Source: a virus (taxonomy: Duplodnaviria; Caudoviricetes). From it: a stretch of 64,000 bases of DNA. Where the stretch lies: the IMG/VR virus record IMGVR_UViG_3300035698_029580. One strand, 5' to 3'. Positions 926-9,639 of this stretch are shown piece by piece (within the stretch, counting starts at the first letter, position 1; every line of letters begins with the position of its first letter). Under the pieces are notes generated by a model. That model was not told the DNA's origin. It ran no database searches and worked only from the letters and a program-made list of their open reading frames with translations. Both the position numbers and the translations under genes were made by a program.

Positions 926-998
926 GTGGCTGTAGCTCAATTGGTTAGAGTATCTGGTTGTGATCCAGAGTGTCCGAATTCGAATTTCGGCAGCCACC
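926..998 (+). tRNA. trnH: tRNA-His(GUG)
   Basis: Cloverleaf GTGGCTG/CAGCCAC, TCTGG-TTGTGAT-CCAGA, TTCGAAT T loop. Confidence 0.93.
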
Positions 999-1000
999 GT

Positions 1001-1110
1001 TAAGGCAAATTATCTCCTTATCCGCCCTGATGAGAGACAAAGGCACCGATAGGACTTGGGCAAACACATAGTCCAGGGTTGTGAACAGTCGTGAGTAATA
1101 ATTTGCCTTA
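1001..1110 (+). ncRNA. unidentified structured RNA between tRNA-His and tRNA-Cys
   Basis: 13-bp terminal stem TAAGGCAAATTAT/ATAATTTGCCTTA enclosing GC-rich internal helices. Confidence 0.5.
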
Positions 1111-1113
1111 TTT

Positions 1114-1185
1114 GGCCAAGTAGTCGAGTGGTACAGACAGTGGTTTGCAAAACCATGCACGTTGGTTCGAATCCAACCTTGGCCT
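1114..1185 (+). tRNA. trnC: tRNA-Cys(GCA)
   Basis: GGCCAAG/CTTGGCC acceptor, GTGGT-TTGCAAA-ACCAT, TTCGAAT. Confidence 0.95.
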
Positions 1186-1311
1186 TTTTGCTAATTTTTA
1201 GCTCATTTTTTGCCCATTTTTTTATTTTCCAGCATTATATGATATAATGTAATAGAGTGTAGAGTAAATGTTACTAAATGATGTAAGTTGTTGTAAATTA
1301 GGAGTTTAGAG

Positions 1312-1977
1312 ATGGCTGAAGAAAAAAAAGTTGGTCGTAGAGGCAAAAAGTTATGTCCATCGTGTGATGAACAAGTTGGAGCCAGGACGTGTGAATGTGT
1401 TTGTGGGCATGTATTTAAGGCTCGTAAAGGTCCTCCTCCTAAGACTAAAGATCCTAATGTACGAGTATCTTCTAGGGGGAAACAATTTTGTCCATCCTGT
1501 GATAAAGAAGTTGGTATCCGGGCTGCTGAGTGTGAGTGTGGACATATTTTTTATGAAAGAAAAACTCCTAAGAAGGTAGCATCTAAGACTTCCCGTAAGA
1601 AAACATGTCCTGATTGTCAAAAGCAATATGGTTTTAGTCAATATAAATGTGAGTGTGGATATAATTTTACACTTCGTATGAATGTAGAGAAGGCAAAAGC
1701 AGCCAGGGAAGCCAAGAAGTTAGAATCAGTTTCAGAAGAAAAAACTAAGAAATCTGAGATAAATGAGAAGAGGCAAGCAATTTTATCTGGTCCTGATATT
1801 CTTGTTGGAGAAGGTCATGAAGAAAAGAAAATGACTAAGCAGGAACATGCCGAGAGAATATTGGGATTAGGTAAGAAGAGAGCATCTAATTTGTTAAGAA
1901 TTAGTACAAAGAATAATTATTGGGCTCATGTTGATTGGAATTATGTAAGAGAGCAATTGGGTGTAACAAATGGATAA
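1312..1977 (+). CDS. triple zinc-ribbon repeat protein (UPF0547-like CPxC..CxCGH/YxF repeats)
   Basis: Three CPxC-x8-CxCG repeats, basic. Confidence 0.75.
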   Translation: MAEEKKVGRRGKKLCPSCDEQVGARTCECVCGHVFKARKGPPPKTKDPNVRVSSRGKQFCPSCDKEVGIRAAECECGHIFYERKTPKKVASKTSRKKTCPDCQKQYGFSQYKCECGYNFTLRMNVEKAKAAREAKKLESVSEEKTKKSEINEKRQAILSGPDILVGEGHEEKKMTKQEHAERILGLGKKRASNLLRISTKNNYWAHVDWNYVREQLGVTNG

Positions 1978-2200
1978 AAAAAAATTAAAAGAATTAAAAA
2001 AAATGTCATTAAGAAATGGGGCTGATCTAGATCAGTTTTGGGCTGAGGTGAGAGACAAAGAAGATAATTTATCTAAAATTTTTGAGAATGGACCTCGTAG
2101 TGAAGATGATATAATTTTATTGAGACAAGTTGCGGGTCTTATTATAGCAGAGATAAATTATAGAAAAGCTGAGGAATGTCGCTTGCAGTCAGGAAACTAA
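1970..2200 (+). CDS. hypothetical protein, paralog 1 of 3
   Basis: Shares D(Q/R)xxA..KI.(E/D)NG..D..L..EI pattern with next two ORFs. Confidence 0.75.
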   Translation: MDKKKLKELKKMSLRNGADLDQFWAEVRDKEDNLSKIFENGPRSEDDIILLRQVAGLIIAEINYRKAEECRLQSGN

Positions 2201-2202
2201 TA

Positions 2203-2445
2203 ATGAATGAAAGAATGAAGAAAATAGAAGACGAAATGTTAAAAATTTCTTCTAATAGTGATCAACTTTTTGCTGCTTTCTCAAGTAAAAAAAATATATT
2301 AAAGAAAATAGCAGAAAATGGGATTAACGGACAAGACGATGAAACATTATGTAGATCAGTTATTTATTATTTATTGGGGGAAATAGAGATAAGAAGAGCA
2401 GAAATAAGTATTATTAATTTGAAGAATGAATTAAAAGATGGATAA
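2203..2445 (+). CDS. hypothetical protein, paralog 2 of 3
   Basis: Start at internal ATG (MNERMKK) of ORF 2176; paralogy as above. Confidence 0.7.
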   Translation: MNERMKKIEDEMLKISSNSDQLFAAFSSKKNILKKIAENGINGQDDETLCRSVIYYLLGEIEIRRAEISIINLKNELKDG

Positions 2446-2668
2446 AGATAAAAAAGAATTAAATAATTTACATTTACAAAATATTTCTTCTTTAGATCGT
2501 CTTTGGGCTCTTATGAGAGATAAAGAAGATGAATTAAAAAAGATACTGGATAATGGACCTAAAAATAAAGATGATTTAATTTTGGTTAAAAGTGTTTTAT
2601 GTCTTGTTTTGGCAGAGGTTAATTTTAAAAAGGCTGAACAACTTCGTGTTGAGTTAGGAAAAGAGTAG
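2438..2668 (+). CDS. hypothetical protein, paralog 3 of 3
   Basis: Clear similarity to 1970..2200 (LD..WA..RDKED.L.KI..NGP). Confidence 0.75.
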   Translation: MDKDKKELNNLHLQNISSLDRLWALMRDKEDELKKILDNGPKNKDDLILVKSVLCLVLAEVNFKKAEQLRVELGKE

Positions 2669-2681
2669 GATTGGTGAAATT

Positions 2682-2753
2682 GCCCCAGTGGTATAATGGT
2701 TAAAATATTAGCCTTCCAAGCTAAAGATGAGGGTTCGATTCCCTTCTGGGGCT
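2682..2753 (+). tRNA. trnG: tRNA-Gly(UCC)
   Basis: GCCCCAG/CTGGGGC, TTAGC-CTTCCAA-GCTAA, TTCGATT. Confidence 0.92.
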
Positions 2754-3028
2754 ATTATAAAAATATAAATTAGTATTTTTGGAGGAACAAATATGGATAT
2801 GGATTTGTCATTTTTTATATTATTGTGTTTATTTTGTTTTTGCTTTGGTTCTTTTTTGTGTGATATTTATTATAAATTAAAAAAAAGAAAAATACAAAAA
2901 GATATTTTAATACTTAAAAAAGAACTGGCAAACAGAAGAAAAGAAGTAAATTAATTAAAAAAAACTCAGAAAGAAAGAAATGATTAGATGTAAATATTGT
3001 AAATATTTTGAGAGGGGAAAATAATAAG

Positions 3029-3418
3029 ATGAAGACAACGTATGCACACGATTGGGAGTTGCTGGGAGAAGAGAGGATAAGACGGTGGACAAACAGTTTT
3101 AAGCATACAGAACAAATAAAATCTCAAATTGAAGATCCACGAACAGTAAATTGTGAGATATTTTCATGGAAGAATGCCCCCTGTTTAGGAGGTCGTCATT
3201 ATTCTTTGAGAATCCAAGAGGAAAATAACCAATGGTGGTGTAATGATGAAAACTCTTGGGTAGAGATTAGTTGTGATAGCAATAATCGAGGCTTCTCACT
3301 AGAGGCAGAATGTAATAGTAGAGAGGAAGCTGAGGCTATACGAGACTTTGTAATTAACAGGGTATTTGGGAATCCAAGAACAAAAAAACGAAAAATGTGG
3401 AGGGTCGTTAATGATTAA
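3029..3418 (+). CDS. hypothetical protein
   Basis: ORF 3008..3418, ATG start at 3029 preferred. Confidence 0.65.
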   Translation: MKTTYAHDWELLGEERIRRWTNSFKHTEQIKSQIEDPRTVNCEIFSWKNAPCLGGRHYSLRIQEENNQWWCNDENSWVEISCDSNNRGFSLEAECNSREEAEAIRDFVINRVFGNPRTKKRKMWRVVND

Positions 3419-3899
3419 ATGTAAAGATTGTAAATATTTTGAAAGGGCAATGTGGCCTTCTTCTTTAGGAGGAGGAGAGCAATATGGCGGAAGTTGTCCA
3501 TTATTGCTTAAAGAATTGAAATTACACAATACTAACATCTTTTTCTGGGAAAAAATTTATATACAAGATACTTTTGGATGTATAATGGGAGTTGAGAAAT
3601 TAGAAATTTCTGAAACTGTTTTATATGGAATAGGTGATTATCTTGAAAATTATGGTTTATGTTTATTTTTGACTTATGAAAAAGAATTTTTAAAAAATGG
3701 GTATCAATCAGATACGTTTGAAGAAAATATATATAAGAAATTGAAATCTAAGGGTTTTTATGACGTAGGAGATGGTATTTGGGTGGGTGGATCTCGTGTT
3801 GAGAATATAAGAGATGATTATGAAAAAATAGTAGAAGCATTAGGATTTAAGTATAATAAAAAATTTGAAGAATTTGTATTAGATTGTGATGATGATTAA
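3411..3899 (+). CDS. hypothetical protein with N-terminal CxxC
   Basis: ORF 3366..3899, start MIKCKDCKYF overlapping previous gene end. Confidence 0.7.
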   Translation: MIKCKDCKYFERAMWPSSLGGGEQYGGSCPLLLKELKLHNTNIFFWEKIYIQDTFGCIMGVEKLEISETVLYGIGDYLENYGLCLFLTYEKEFLKNGYQSDTFEENIYKKLKSKGFYDVGDGIWVGGSRVENIRDDYEKIVEALGFKYNKKFEEFVLDCDDD

Positions 3900-3905
3900 T
3901 AAGAT

Positions 3906-3984
3906 TGCGGGCGAGTGGAACGGATATATAAACCACACGTGGTTTATATCCACGTAATACCAGTTTCGACTACTGGGTTTGCTA
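3906..3984 (+). tRNA. tRNA with UAU (Ile) anticodon on an initiator-like scaffold
   Basis: TGCGGGC/GTTTGCT acceptor with 1:72 mismatch, CGTGG-TTTATAT-CCACG, CCAGT-TTCGACT-ACTGG. Confidence 0.75.
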
Positions 3985-3989
3985 TTTAC

Positions 3990-4072
3990 AGTGGAATATG
4001 CAAGTGGCTAAAGCAGAAACCCTCATAAGGTTTTGGAGAAATCCTTCCCAGGTTCAAATCCTGGTTCCACTA
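3990..4072 (+). tRNA. tRNA-Met/Ile2(CAU) with long variable arm
   Basis: AGTGGAA/TTCCACT, AAACC-CTCATAA-GGTTT, variable hairpin GGA-GAAA-TCC, TTCAAAT. Confidence 0.85.
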
Positions 4073-4086
4073 GGATCATAAATTTA

Positions 4087-4158
4087 GGTGGTTTAGCTGA
4101 GTTGGATTAGCGGTGTCTTGAAGCGGCACAGAGTCAGGTCCGAATCCTGAAACCACCA
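4087..4158 (+). tRNA. trnF: tRNA-Phe(GAA)
   Basis: GGTGGTT/AACCACC, GTGTC-TTGAAGC-GGCAC, T loop TCCGAAT (non-canonical). Confidence 0.88.
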
Positions 4159-4174
4159 TTTTTTAGGAAAAAAT

Positions 4175-4570
4175 ATGTGTCAAAAATGTATTGATGCTGT
4201 AAAAGAGACATGGAAAGATTTACCAGAAGAAAATTATAGTGATTTATTAGTGGGAGCTACAGCTTTTCCCTGTAGTGGTCCAGAGGAAACAAGAAAGCAA
4301 TTGATAGAGATAGGAAAAAAGAGTAATTATAATTTAGAATTAGCTTTAGCAATTATTGATACTGAAACAGAAAAGCAAATGAGAGAAGGGGTTGATGAAT
4401 CTAAAATACCTAAGAGGAAGTTAAGGCAAATTAAATATACTGCTCGTTTTGCACGAGAAGCAAAGGATATAGGAATTAATTTAGACAAAGAGAAGTTAAG
4501 GCAAATTAAATATTCTGAGCAATTTGTACGAGAGGCAAAGGATATGGGGGTTAAGTTAAAAGATGAATAG
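4175..4570 (+). CDS. hypothetical protein with duplicated C-terminal repeat
   Basis: KLRQIKY...F.REAKD.G occurs twice. Confidence 0.75.
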   Translation: MCQKCIDAVKETWKDLPEENYSDLLVGATAFPCSGPEETRKQLIEIGKKSNYNLELALAIIDTETEKQMREGVDESKIPKRKLRQIKYTARFAREAKDIGINLDKEKLRQIKYSEQFVREAKDMGVKLKDE

Positions 4571-4616
4571 AAAAATTATTTTTTATTTTATAATATATAC
4601 ATTATTATTGATGTGA

Positions 4617-4698
4617 ACTCCCATGATGGAATAGGTAGACATGATAGATTTAGAATCTATTGCCGCAAGGCGTACTGGTTCGACTCCAGTTGGGAGTA
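4617..4698 (+). tRNA. trnL: tRNA-Leu(UAG)
   Basis: ACTCCCA/TGGGAGT, ATAGA-TTTAGAA-TCTAT, variable arm GCC-GCAA-GGC. Confidence 0.93.
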
Positions 4699-5114
4699 TT
4701 TATTAGCATAGTAATAATATCACTTGATATAAGTGATACAAGTGCTTTCATAATTTTCCAGCATTATAAAAAATTGGAGAATAAAGAAGAAACACGGGAT
4801 AATAAAAAAGAAAGAAAGGTGAAGTGATGGCAAAAATAGAGTTTATTAAAAATGTACACGATCAATATAAGTATGATATGGTGTTGACTACAACTATTCC
4901 AAAAACAGGTAAAGAGATAAAAACCACCATGGCAACAGTTTTCTGTGATGAAATAGGTGAGGCAGGAGCAGATAATTACCAATATAATTCCGTTACTGGT
5001 AAAAAAGAATACCTGAAACAGATAAACGCTGAACTGGTTTTTTCAGCAATATAGTTGAGAGTTTATCTGCTTGTCCTTAATTTTCCAGCAAAATAAAAAT
5101 TTTAGGATAGTAAA

Positions 5115-5585
5115 ATGAAGAAGGTACTATTAAGAAAAAGTGATTTTAAGTCAGATTTTAAATTTGATGAGATTGCAAATGTTGTAGGAGTCGATACTGC
5201 TTTTTCTAATAAAATAGTATTATTTGTTAAGGATTCAGTTGCCCTTTCTTCAACAGAGACAAATAAAGAGCAAATGAAAAAAATATTTGATAAAATAGAT
5301 ATGATGAATTTGACAGATGAATATGAAGTCCAGTGGAAAGATGAAAGAAGTTTATTTGAGAATAGAGAAAATAAAACTTTTTCTTCTAGAAAAGAGGCTA
5401 TTACTTATGTAAGGTATCAAATAGAAGATTTTGTACATATGCTAGATGATGGTGATGAAATAAAGATATTTGATACTAAAAAGTTAGTCTGTACTATTGT
5501 AAGAGTTGAAAAGAAAACAGATATAGAAGAAGAATTTCATAAAGCAATAACAGAGCCTGGGGATGTAGGTCTGAAAAATGAATAA
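5115..5585 (+). CDS. hypothetical protein
   Basis: ORF downstream of motif at 5081. Confidence 0.7.
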   Translation: MKKVLLRKSDFKSDFKFDEIANVVGVDTAFSNKIVLFVKDSVALSSTETNKEQMKKIFDKIDMMNLTDEYEVQWKDERSLFENRENKTFSSRKEAITYVRYQIEDFVHMLDDGDEIKIFDTKKLVCTIVRVEKKTDIEEEFHKAITEPGDVGLKNE

Positions 5586-5856
5586 ATATAAAAAATTTAT
5601 GGATAAACATAAAATGTTTGATGTGTCATTGACTGATGTATTAGCAAAAGTAGAGGATAAGTTAAAGGGAAAAAAATTAAATAAAGAAAATTTGGAACAA
5701 GCTCTTACTGAAATGGAAGCAGAATATAAAAGAGAAAATGAGGCAGATTGGAAGAAAGTAAGAGGCAAAATAAGAAGAGATTTTATTATTCAATTGGTAA
5801 CATTTGTAGCATTGCTTGGAGTTATTGCAATGACAGTTTTTTTAGTATTGCAATAA
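5578..5856 (+). CDS. hypothetical membrane-anchored protein; paralog of 5894..6145
   Basis: KLKGKKLNKENLEQAL vs KLKGKELNKENMEQAI; C-terminal hydrophobic helix. Confidence 0.7.
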   Translation: MNKYKKFMDKHKMFDVSLTDVLAKVEDKLKGKKLNKENLEQALTEMEAEYKRENEADWKKVRGKIRRDFIIQLVTFVALLGVIAMTVFLVLQ

Positions 5857-5893
5857 AAATATTTGAAAATAGATTAGAAAAGGGAGTCTTATT

Positions 5894-6145
5894 ATGAGAA
5901 AATTATCTGATATAAAGATTAATTTAAATGATTTTTATGAAGAAGTATTAAAAGAGCTAATGCAAAAAAGAGTAGGAATTAAATTAAAGGGAAAAGAATT
6001 AAATAAAGAAAATATGGAGCAAGCTATTGATGAGGTAATAGCAGAAGCCGAATTAGAAAATCAGGCAAATATGAGGGAACATGGTTTAACCATAGTAGAT
6101 GAGGCAGATATGAAGAAAGAGAATAAGCAGATAAGAAAGGAATGA
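5894..6145 (+). CDS. hypothetical protein; paralog of 5578..5856
   Basis: Shared motif; GGAG RBS. Confidence 0.7.
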   Translation: MRKLSDIKINLNDFYEEVLKELMQKRVGIKLKGKELNKENMEQAIDEVIAEAELENQANMREHGLTIVDEADMKKENKQIRKE

Positions 6146-6272
6146 ATACAAAATATAATAGATACAATAGGATTTTGGTCTATTTTTATTGGTTCTATTG
6201 TTGTTTCTATATTGTTTGTTTATTTTGTTTTTCACTAAAATAAAAATCTTTGAAAATTGAATAGAGAAAAAT

Positions 6273-6586
6273 GCGGGTGTGGCGGAATTGGCAGACGCTG
6301 AAAGTTTTGGCGTCTAAAAATTGGGCAAAAACGGTGAAGGCTGAGATGCTAATATCGTGCTAAATAATCAGATTACGAAAGGCTGATTGTCAGTGTAGAG
6401 CATAGAAGGTGAATAAATATAATCCTTCCACGAGTGCCCAACAATCGAAAGATTGAAAATATATGCCGAGCTACAATAAAATCAAGTTGTAGAACTATGG
6501 GATAAAAAGCCTATAGGATAACATAACTGGGGGCCTTAAAAGCCCCTGCTCGTAAGAGCATGGAGGTTCAAATCCTCTCACCCGCA
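6273..6586 (+). tRNA. trnL: tRNA-Leu(UAA) split by group I intron (exons 6273-6299 and 6530-6586)
   Basis: GCGGGTG/CACCCGC acceptor, D arm GGCGGAATTGGCAGACGC, GGGGC-CTTAAAA-GCCCC, long variable arm, TTCAAAT. Confidence 0.92.
6300..6529 (+). mobile_element. group I self-splicing intron (IA-like, no endonuclease ORF)
   Basis: P1 AGACGCU/GGCGUCU with U.G at splice site, P3 TTGGGCA/TGCCCAA, P7 GCATA/TATGC, P8 CAATC-GAAA-GATTG, terminal G at 6529. Confidence 0.88.
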
Positions 6587-6716
6587 TTATTATTAACTTG
6601 ACAGAAATGGTATACATTTTTTATAAAGGAGTTTTCGTCATTATTCTGATTGATTAAGATAATTATTTTTCCAGCAAAATAATTATCTTAGCCTATAAGT
6701 AGAAAGGTATTAAAAA

Positions 6717-6944
6717 ATGGCAAAATTAATATGTCCTGAATGTGGTAGTAAAAAAGTAAATACTAGTATTAAGGATTATCCTTTTTTTTATGGAAAAAAG
6801 GGAAGTATTCAAATTGAATTAACTGCTTGTGATATTTTAGTAAGAAATTGTACAAATTGTGGTTTTAGTTTTATAGACGATGAAGCAGAAAAAATAATGG
6901 AAAAAGCAATTTCTGATTATTTGGAAAAAAAAAATGAAGATTAA
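6717..6944 (+). CDS. YgiT/MqsA-type zinc finger protein
   Basis: CPECG...CTNCG with MqsA-like spacing. Confidence 0.65.
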   Translation: MAKLICPECGSKKVNTSIKDYPFFYGKKGSIQIELTACDILVRNCTNCGFSFIDDEAEKIMEKAISDYLEKKNED

Positions 6945-7290
6945 ATTGACGAGATTACAATCTAAAATATTAAGACATCAATTAGGGTTTTCAGATCGTT
7001 TAGCTGATGTGTTGGGTGATGAGTTTGGATTTTCGAGGGAAGATGTTGAAATTACTGCTAATTTGTTATTCATTAATTTAACCAATAAAGAAATAGATAT
7101 TTCTGAGGCAAACTCATTTAGTGAAAGTATTACTGAGGAAATATTAATTGAGTGTGTTGAAGATTCTACTTGGATAAGTTCTATGATGGAGAATGAGTCA
7201 GAAAGAAAAATTTCTGCTCATATTAGAAGTTTAGAAGATTTAACACAAAAAATAAAAGAGAGTACAGGACATAAGGTGATAAAATGTTAG
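6934..7290 (+). CDS. hypothetical protein
   Basis: ORF coupled to previous gene. Confidence 0.7.
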   Translation: MKIKLTRLQSKILRHQLGFSDRLADVLGDEFGFSREDVEITANLLFINLTNKEIDISEANSFSESITEEILIECVEDSTWISSMMENESERKISAHIRSLEDLTQKIKESTGHKVIKC

Positions 7291-7324
7291 TATTAAGTAG
7301 ACAAAAATAAATAATTTTTTTAAA

Positions 7325-7406
7325 GCTCTCATGGTGGAACAGGCATACACGGTAGTTTCAAAAGCTATTGCCGAGAGGCATACTGGTTCGACTCCAGTTG
7401 GGAGTA
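7325..7406 (+). tRNA. trnL: tRNA-Leu(CAA)
   Basis: GCTCTCA/TGGGAGT, GTAGT-TTCAAAA-GCTAT; 3' end identical to tRNA-Leu(UAG). Confidence 0.9.
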
Positions 7407-8349: not shown

Positions 8350-9639
8350 ATGTCAAATGTTGTAGAATATCGAAAATTTATTTGTGTAAATTTTGAAGAT
8401 TCCAACAATAATAAGATTTGGAACATCAAATTATACGATAATGATGATGTTGAAGTTGAATGGGGGAGAGTAGGGAAGGGTCTTCAGTCTAAACCTCATT
8501 ACGGTGGGGGCAGACATAAATTTGACTCTTTAATTAAGAAGAAAACAAATCCTCGTAATTCTGCTGATAAACATTATTCTGAAAATAAAGTAGTAGAAGG
8601 TGTGTCATCTACTTCTTCTTATAATCATGATTTAAAGAAAATTGCAACGGAACAAATTAAAACAAAATCACAAATTGTTATAAATTTGATTGAATATTTA
8701 ACTAAAGTAAATGCACATAATATTTTAGTAGCAACAAATGGAAGTATTGAATTTGATACATCTACTGCTCAATTTAAGACTCCTCAAGGTATTATCGTAC
8801 CCGAACAAGTACAGATAGCAAGGCAATTGCTTGCTGATATGTCTGATTTCGTAAGGATGGAAAACTGGAGTAATCCATCTTTTCGTAAATATATGAATGA
8901 ATATCTAAGACTTATTCCTCATGATGTAGGAATGAAGAAGATTGAGCCAAAGGCAATTATTCCTACTGTAGATGTATTACAACGTGAGAATGATATTTTA
9001 GATGGATTAGAGACCTCATTTATTGATGTTACAACTCAGCCTAAAAATGATAAAGAAGAAGTGGTTGTTCCTAAAATTTTTGATGTAGAAATTGATTTAG
9101 TAGAAGATAAAAAAATCTTTGATAAAATAAATAAGTGGTGTGACAGTAGTAGAAAGAGATCTCACAGTTGTAGTCATTTGAGATTAACTCGCCTTTATTC
9201 TGTTAGAATAAATGGTATGGGAAAACGTTTTGAAGAGATATCTCATAAATTGGGTAATGTTAAAGAACTATTTCATGGGACAAGTGATCAAAATTTACTT
9301 TCAATATTGAAAAATGGATTAAAGATTACTCCTCCCAGGACAGCTAAAATTACCGGAAAAATGTTCGGAAACGGAGCGTATTTTGCTTCGAGTAGCTCAA
9401 AAAGCTTAAATTATAGTTATGGTTATTGGGGTGGAACCAGAAAGAATAAGTGCTATATGTTTGTTGCGTCCGTGTGTTTGGGGAAATATTATGTTCCTAA
9501 TAGTGGATGGGGTTCTTTGCCTAGATCTGGTTATGACTCTACTTGGGCAAAGTCTGGTATTTCTGGTGTTATTAATGATGAGATTGTTATTTATAAAGAG
9601 AACCAATGTAACTTAACATATTTGTTGGAGTTTAATTGA
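8350..9639 (+). CDS. poly(ADP-ribose) polymerase-like protein (WGR + helical + catalytic domain)
   Basis: EWGRVG; EYLRLIPH; catalytic FHGT, GKMFGNGAYFA, NDEIVIY (H-Y-E triad). Confidence 0.92.
   Translation: MSNVVEYRKFICVNFEDSNNNKIWNIKLYDNDDVEVEWGRVGKGLQSKPHYGGGRHKFDSLIKKKTNPRNSADKHYSENKVVEGVSSTSSYNHDLKKIATEQIKTKSQIVINLIEYLTKVNAHNILVATNGSIEFDTSTAQFKTPQGIIVPEQVQIARQLLADMSDFVRMENWSNPSFRKYMNEYLRLIPHDVGMKKIEPKAIIPTVDVLQRENDILDGLETSFIDVTTQPKNDKEEVVVPKIFDVEIDLVEDKKIFDKINKWCDSSRKRSHSCSHLRLTRLYSVRINGMGKRFEEISHKLGNVKELFHGTSDQNLLSILKNGLKITPPRTAKITGKMFGNGAYFASSSSKSLNYSYGYWGGTRKNKCYMFVASVCLGKYYVPNSGWGSLPRSGYDSTWAKSGISGVINDEIVIYKENQCNLTYLLEFN

Follow-up and report, generated by a model that had tools for sequence, protein, structure and literature searches.

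A tRNA-Leu(UAA) gene in this phage is predicted to be interrupted between tRNA positions 26 and 27 by an IA-like group I intron lacking an open reading frame (ORF), which would be spliced from the precursor by the mechanism proposed below. Relying on sequence comparisons, we put the probability of this reading at about 0.85. The insert is best regarded as a genuine group I intron of a known, promiscuous phage family, situated in a new kind of place. The gene was found in the 64-kb stretch of DNA analysed here (the window), which is AT-rich (~30% GC), carries almost every gene on the + strand and encodes proteins that match phage families. The tRNA cluster of the window extends from 926 to 7406. 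Features of the split gene are listed in Table 1.

Table 1. Predicted exons, guide sequences and ribozyme helices of the split tRNA-Leu(UAA) gene (positions in the window).
Feature	Position	Strand	Description and evidence
5′ exon	6273..6299	+	tRNA-Leu(UAA) nt 1-26 (acceptor 5′ strand, D arm, U26); sequence, ARAGORN cloverleaf of joined exons
P1 5′ strand (exon AGACGCU)	6293..6299	+	Partner 6309-6315; contributes U6299 to the U.G wobble at the 5′ splice site
Group I intron	6300..6529	+	230 nt, no ORF, subgroup IA-like; blastn homology, R1 model, covariation
P10 guide GUUUU	6304..6308	+	Directly 5′ of the P1 guide; pairs with exon GGGGC (6530-6534)
Internal guide GGCGUCU (P1 3′ strand)	6309..6315	+	Sequence; P1 present in minimum-energy fold
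P3 5′ strand	6321..6327	+	Partner 6435-6441; 7/7 pairs compensatory, 91% of cells paired
P4 with enclosed P5	6332..6357	+	P4 6332-6336/6353-6357, P5 6339-6341/6348-6350; AA/AA internal loops; covariation
P6 hairpin	6364..6390	+	6364-6371/6383-6390, C(GAAA)G tip; 8/8 pairs compensatory, 98.7% paired
P7 5′ strand	6398..6404	+	G6398, bulged A6399, G6400-A6404; partner 6462-6467
P7.1 hairpin	6405..6428	+	Between P7 and P3′; conserved loop UGAAUAAAUAUAAU; 5/5 pairs compensatory, 99.6% paired
P3 3′ strand	6435..6441	+	Covariation
P8 hairpin	6442..6455	+	GAAA loop; 5/5 pairs compensatory
J8/7 and P7 3′ strand	6456..6467	+	AAAAUA then UAUGCC; covariation, conserved alignment columns
P9 and P9.1	6471..6516	+	P9 6471-6476/6487-6492, 96.7% paired; P9.1 6495-6501/6510-6516, 99.9% paired
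Terminal guanosine (omega-G)	6529..6529	+	Sequence; several homologues end at the aligned G
3′ exon	6530..6586	+	tRNA nt 27-73: anticodon arm with UAA, variable arm, T arm, acceptor 3′ strand, A73; ARAGORN

The split tRNA gene

The 5′ exon reads GCGGGUG-U-G-GCG...CGC-U, with ...GGCAGACGCU at its 3′ end. The 3′ exon begins GGGGCCUUAAAAGCCCC and continues through the anticodon arm (GGGGC-CUUAAAA-GCCCC), a long variable arm and the T arm to CACCCGC and a final A. Removal of 6300–6529 in silico yields an 84-nt RNA that ARAGORN calls tRNA-Leu(taa), comprising an acceptor stem of 7 bp, a D stem of 3 bp, an anticodon stem of 5 bp, a long variable arm and a T arm, all of them regular. The initial annotation, made from the sequence before any database search, had proposed that this excision gives a complete tRNA-Leu(UAA) with its anticodon loop intact, and the ARAGORN call on the joined exons bears this out. 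Discriminator A73 (A6586) directly follows the acceptor stem, and the long variable arm, UAA anticodon and A73 of a type II tRNA-Leu are all present after joining. The CUUAAAA loop is unbroken within the 3′ exon; the junction, U26/G27, falls outside positions 32–38, where an anticodon-loop insertion would lie. The predicted spliced junction would read ...GGCAGACGCU|GGGGCCUUAAAA...

Neither ARAGORN nor the Rfam tRNA model reports a tRNA at 6273–6586 in the unspliced genomic sequence, and the intron option of ARAGORN returns a false tRNA-Pro(tgg) with an anticodon-loop intron. The expectation that tRNA finders would miss the gene was thus correct.

Splice sites, P1 and P10

P1 comprises seven pairs and closes in U6299.G6309, as is required of a group I P1, and homologues have the same layout. 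Since the helix ends in this wobble pair, 5′ cleavage would occur after tRNA position 26. The proposal that P1 (AGACGCU/GGCGUCU, with its U.G) sets the 5′ site after U26 held under homology, covariation and in-silico splicing. At the other end, G6529 is the likely terminal G because the register of P10 is anchored by C6534-G6304 and runs gap-free to P1; with any other register, the anticodon stem of 5 bp is not restored. The boundaries in the window are ...AGACGCU|gaaaguuuuGGCGUCU... and ...aacug|GGGGCC.

P10 would be weak, as it consists of four G.U pairs and one G-C pair only, and the run of five G at 6529–6533 leaves room for mis-splicing at the 3′ junction. Both points count against the best explanation, as does the length of J4/6 and J6/7, which are longer than in typical cores. 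The register is that of the intron in Lactobacillus phage JCL1032, and the suggestion that the intron ends in a G before GGGGC, with a possible GUUUU/GGGGC P10, is retained.

Identity and structure of the intron

A blastn search of the insert against GenBank phages returned 30 records with 69–81% identity across most of its length. The matching stretches split genes for the terminase large subunit in JCL1032 (annotated as a joined CDS) and in Staphylococcus phages SA2 and F1, a DNA helicase gene in cr118_1 and a polymerase/primase gene in Dulem virus 41. In cr6_1, PJN02 and Lbo-JY46, an annotated endonuclease gene lies just upstream of the matching stretch and is labelled intron-encoded in cr6_1. 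The wider IA-like family to which these kin belong takes in Staphylococcus, Bacillus, Clostridioides and crAss-like phages. Among Lactobacillus phages, JCL1032 is cited as the only one whose introns have been proven to self-splice (PMC6669764, citing Riipinen and Alatossava 2004). The precursor fold has a z-score of −5.2 against shuffled sequences, none of the 100 shuffles being as good.

The Rfam group I model, Intron_gpI (RF00028), gave no match to the insert at its gathering score or at E≤10, and it likewise misses the introns of JCL1032, SA2, MT835539 and the metagenome contig L203 described below (E≤1). Because the proven JCL1032 intron and other relatives are missed too, this failure reflects a gap in the model, which has been described as incomplete for phage introns (PMC11878797). 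A covariance model (R1) was built from a curated alignment of 10 sequences from which P7 was left out, and a motif scan of IMG/VR for the family located at least 112 loci. Among the matches listed, R1 gave 119 in 100 sources, with the window copy second best (219 bits, E 6e-62). Group I identity, as originally proposed, is upheld by homology, covariation and in-silico splicing alike.

The helices of the intron are P1, P3, P4, P5, P6, P7 with a bulged A, P7.1, P8, P9 and P9.1; there is no P2. Across the 10 hand-picked sequences, 96.7% of cells pair, against 30–41% when partners are slid by 1–3 columns, and compensatory changes are seen in 37 of 53 pairs. The corresponding figures for the 119 R1 matches, among those listed, are 95.8% against 34–40% in the slid controls, and the alignment of these matches (111 distinct sequences, among the matches listed) has compensatory changes in 48 of the 53 pairs. 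Pairing of P7 provides an independent test, as this helix was absent from the model that made the alignment: in the R1 matches listed, it is 99.5% paired and four of its six pairs are compensatory. The G6400-C6466 pair beside bulged A6399, invariant in 97 of 97 sequences among the matches listed, is the putative guanosine-binding pair. All parts of a group I core were found, namely the P3/P7 pseudoknot, the P4–P6 domain, P8 and P9, with covariation support and the guanosine-site G-C by the bulge. An early hand fold (P4 as AUGCU/AGCAU, P6 as GAAGG/CCUUC, P7 unplaced) was overturned by JCL1032 and other relatives and by covariation; the corrected helices are P4 CGGUG/UAUCG, a GAAA-tipped hairpin for P6, P7 GAGCAUA/UAUGCC and P7.1 GAAGG/CCUUC.

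Subgroup IA is indicated by the kinship with phage introns and by the hairpin that separates P7 from P3′; the "IA-like" label does not assign the intron to IA1, IA2 or IA3. Both P7.1 in this position and the core sequence homology that mark the IA-like family are present.

Sister phages and uninterrupted alleles

A scan for the end of the D arm followed by a gap of 4–25 nt and GGCGUCUAAA gave, among otherwise chance matches, the metagenome contigs L203 and L211. Both are syntenic with the window (73–92% nucleotide identity over 4168–6928) and have the same split tRNA-Leu(UAA) gene with identical junctions, and their ribozyme matches that of the window at 224 of 230 positions. The window exons differ from those of L203 at six places, one in the 5′ exon (26 of 27 columns identical) and five in the 3′ exon: one base fewer in the D loop of L203, two differences in the variable-arm loop, one in the T loop and a pair in the variable-arm stem, which is GCUC/GAGC in the window and, through compensatory change, GCCC/GGGC in L203. 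All six keep the tRNA fold. As the gene and its junctions are shared and the exon changes maintain the fold, the split element is conserved, and the split tRNA seems, on this comparison, to be under selection.

The intron of L203 and L211 is 659 nt long, with a 429-nt insertion in L5, the loop inside P5, where relatives have an HNH ORF. This insertion carries a Shine-Dalgarno sequence and an ORF of 124 aa, which in L203 (2564–2938) matches the HNH family PF01844 (Pfam, 31.6 bits against a cut-off of 21.4). The initial annotation stated that there is no homing endonuclease; this stands for the window copy, whose 230 nt contain no ORF, but not for L203 and L211 with their HNH gene in L5. The homing gene was either lost from the window copy or never acquired by it. 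The closest and only IMG/VR relative of the intron-borne HNH protein (L226, 1–420; 43% identity) is encoded by a free-standing gene, not inside an intron, which adjoins two tRNA genes on the opposite strand, one of them with a leucine-like UUAA loop.

Phage tRNA-Leu(UAA) genes that are not interrupted, such as that of L048, read ...GACGCU|GGGG... and represent analogues of the empty site. An IMG/VR scan with a 19-mer from the D arm found 78 loci, none with the window intron, and R1 found none at the D arm; a scan of IMG/VR with the 3′ exon gave no matches, and none of the 11 matches to the P1 pattern in the genome contig collection had a tRNA 5′ exon upstream or an intron core downstream. Of two neighbouring ORFs, 6934–7290 had no relatives in IMG/VR and 6717–6944 had no homologues in the protein collection, so that no close relative with an intron-less allele was recovered. 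ORF 6717–6944 (+ strand, 75 aa, 131 nt downstream of the tRNA) has a sub-threshold match to an MqsA antitoxin zinc ribbon (23.9 bits against a cut-off of 30), and L203 has a 74-aa ORF in the same place (3260–3484). Further downstream in the window, 8350–9639 (+ strand) encodes a 429-aa protein with 32–37% identity to proteins annotated as poly(ADP-ribose) polymerase or with ADP-ribosylation from Klebsiella, Xanthomonas and Stenotrophomonas jumbo phages.

Proposed splicing mechanism and alternative explanations

Before splicing, the guide GGCGUCU would be paired, as P1, with AGACGCU (U26 and the 3′ half of the D arm), which would then not be part of the D stem. The anticodon, variable and T arms and the acceptor stem would already be able to form at this stage. 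The invariant G-C pair of P7 would bind a free guanosine, which would attack after U26. GUUUU would then hold GGGGC, the first five bases of the anticodon stem, as P10, and G6529 would enter the same pocket, whereupon the exons would be joined. The D stem would form only after joining, and the tRNA would then mature. It is predicted to read UUA; in the ORFs of this AT-rich window, TTA makes up 41% and TTG 24% of leucine codons. We infer splicing in vivo and a functional tRNA, along with the acquisition route and homing by the HNH enzyme; re-targeting of the short guide probably brought the intron into the tRNA.

The weak P10 could be taken as a sign that a selfish insertion has killed a dispensable tRNA, with poor or no splicing at this unusual site and the exons surviving as a young pseudogene. 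The phage has two further tRNA-Leu genes (UAG and CAA, called by ARAGORN) in the same cluster, so loss of the split tRNA-Leu(UAA) might be tolerated, and a family that lands in at least 87 different sites can be expected to make chance insertions. We nevertheless regard this as unlikely, since diverged sister phages keep the split gene with identical junctions, all six exon differences fit the tRNA fold (one being a compensatory pair), the ribozyme core is intact and high-scoring, and UUA, the commonest leucine codon, is best read by a UAA anticodon. It is more improbable still, to the point of being barely credible, that the final product is the RNA before splicing, with a folded insert carried on a tRNA scaffold. 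Many IMG/VR phages do have tRNA-shaped genes with a non-tRNA domain right after the same D arm, but those inserts are 50–180 nt long and replace the anticodon arm. The window has a perfect anticodon arm after an insert that is a complete ribozyme core, with guide, guanosine-binding pair and terminal G.

Splicing as proposed could also use a junction shifted by one base, with cleavage after C25, a 3′ exon beginning at G6529 and a tRNA with G26. The five G at 6529–6533 permit such a shift, the resulting tRNA would still be well formed, and G26 is common in tRNAs. This is very improbable, however, because P1 closes in a canonical U.G at U6299, C6534-G6304 anchors a P10 that is continuous with P1 as in JCL1032, and uninterrupted relatives read U26 and then GGGG. 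Moreover, C at position −1 is rare (Williams 2020, bioRxiv 10.1101/2020.01.27.920355).

Distribution of the family and other tRNA sites

Two scans were run with the 3′ tail of the family followed by a T-loop motif. In an 83-kb viral contig (L227), the anticodon stem of tRNA-Leu(UAA) is split in its 5′ strand, at 28/29, by a 227-nt family member (123 bits); the P1 of this intron is AUACACAGU/GCUGUGUAU and the spliced product is called tRNA-Leu(taa). In a second contig, L232, tRNA-Pro(UGG) has a 191-bit member at the 3′ edge of its loop (38/39). When the two split tRNAs were compared with GenBank phages by blastn, no cultured phage was found to carry these genes.

Among the matches listed, the 106 family members checked in IMG/VR have at least 87 distinct 3′ exons, and a T arm after the intron was seen in none of the 115 motif matches, again among those listed. 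Family members in IMG/VR appear to lie in protein-coding sequence, and on these two counts the tRNA insertions are rare offshoots of a very mobile family.

JCL1032 suggested a jump from a Walker-A (GK[ST]) coding site (P1 AACGGU versus GACGCU, P10 AAAAC versus GGGGC). This idea is unsupported, as only 8 of the 87 distinct 3′ exons begin with K[ST] among the matches listed and the nearest relatives are only 77–81% identical. Members that split ATPase genes inside the Walker A codons (G|K[ST]) include that of JCL1032 (L001, 1490–1730), and 3′ exons beginning with K[ST] occur in L083, L085, L086, L141, L143, L154, L164 and L192; one sublineage may home to P-loop coding sequence in unrelated genes. 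Four loci (L239 8056–10137, L229 3142–4980, L241 3601–4660 and L237 5984–8959) have 4–6 matches to R1 within 1–3 kb, a density that suggests individual genes interrupted many times over by group I introns lying back to back.

Comparison with known introns

The terL intron of JCL1032, a phage of Lactobacillus delbrueckii, has a core homologous to that of the window from guide to terminal G (69% identity over 227 nt, blastn). P1, P3–P9.1 and P7.1 are present and P2 is absent in both. The layout of the P1 and P10 guides is also the same, with P1 AACGGU|...GCCGUU, a GUUUU P10 guide and AGUUUU/AAAACU. Its aligned boundaries are ...AACGGU|agaguuuuGCCGUU... and ...aaaug|AAAACU, and its exons translate in one frame through the Walker A motif, GRKNG|KT. 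The two introns differ in host (a protein gene in JCL1032, a tRNA in the window), P1 guide (GCCGUU versus GGCGUCU) and P10, which is made of A-U rather than G.U pairs.

Bacterial tRNA group I introns are placed in the anticodon loop by reviews and by the tRNAscan-SE 2.0 paper, in agreement with the background given in the initial annotation. Like the window intron, these classical introns lie in a tRNA gene, that of the same isoacceptor included, take P1 and P10 from tRNA sequence and leave a tRNA only after splicing. They are listed as IC3, however, and interrupt the seven bases of the anticodon loop, whereas the window intron lies at 26/27, the junction of D arm and anticodon stem, has a P7.1 hairpin and has phage protein-gene introns as its sequence relatives. 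It is not related to the classical cyanobacterial tRNA-Leu intron, its family being one normally found in protein genes. The largest survey brought the types up from four to 21 and by design tested only eight positions around the seven loop bases (Williams, bioRxiv 10.1101/2020.01.27.920355). Full-text searches of the literature gave no report of a group I intron at the tRNA D-arm/anticodon-stem junction or in the anticodon stem. The description of 26/27 as atypical therefore stands, and the contrary view, that it is already a common described site, is without support there.

In tmRNA genes, group I introns occupy four T-loop positions, and the authors of that study state that other sites may be systematically missed (PMC11915505). 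Those introns resemble the one in the window in lying in a tRNA-like body outside the anticodon loop and in being missed by standard models; the RNA and the site are different. The plastid trnG(UCC) gene has a group II intron in its D stem. Archaeal bulge-helix-bulge tRNA introns are described at many positions (PMC4090602). Both kinds interrupt a tRNA outside the anticodon loop, as here, but the archaeal introns are removed by a protein endonuclease and ligase and the plastid one is a group II ribozyme, unlike the group I intron of the window.

This intron at 26/27 and its relative at 28/29 mean that biased searching accounts for at least part of the apparent confinement to the loop. The anticodon-loop pattern in reviews and surveys feeds ideas on the origin of tRNA introns. 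Furthermore, the tRNA sets of phages are under-counted, ARAGORN and Rfam having missed the present gene and ARAGORN in intron mode having given a tRNA-Pro. With the D-stem strand taken up by P1, the tRNA core would be unable to fold before splicing. If so, splicing would be an obligatory and possibly regulated step in the supply of the phage's main leucine tRNA, and the competition of P1 with the D stem would make this a natural system for the co-folding of a ribozyme and a tRNA body. The HNH-bearing sister copy provides a testable candidate homing enzyme, expected to cut a tRNA gene. More tentatively, at somewhat less than even odds, group I introns in the tRNA body, both in the anticodon stem and where it joins the D arm, may be recurrent and overlooked in large phages, with a promiscuous IA family that re-targets its guide to tRNA-Leu(UAA), spreads by way of the HNH gene in L5 and makes splicing obligatory and possibly regulated.

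Other unusual tRNA genes in viral contigs

Several other loci came to light. About 35 viral contigs have tRNA-like genes of 100–260 nt with a perfect 7-bp acceptor stem, a leucine-type D arm and a T arm and no anticodon arm; a non-tRNA domain of 50–180 nt begins right after U26. They include L004, L006, L009, L016, L020, L022, L030, L032, L035, L036, L046, L050, L064, L074 and L081. In L007, L026, L027, L038, L039, L053, L065 and L067, a tRNA-like gene has an anticodon arm with a 7-bp stem (CTAATAG/CTATTAG) and a 9-nt loop, AGATGAACA; a simple search found no matching acceptor 3′ strand for it. L072 diverges directly after GGGGATTTAAAA, which may mark an insert at 38/39. Inserts of ~330–420 nt are found at the classical anticodon-loop site (CTT|...|AAAA) of phage tRNA-Leu(UAA) genes in L010 and L071, and the L071 example scores only 21.7 bits with the family model.
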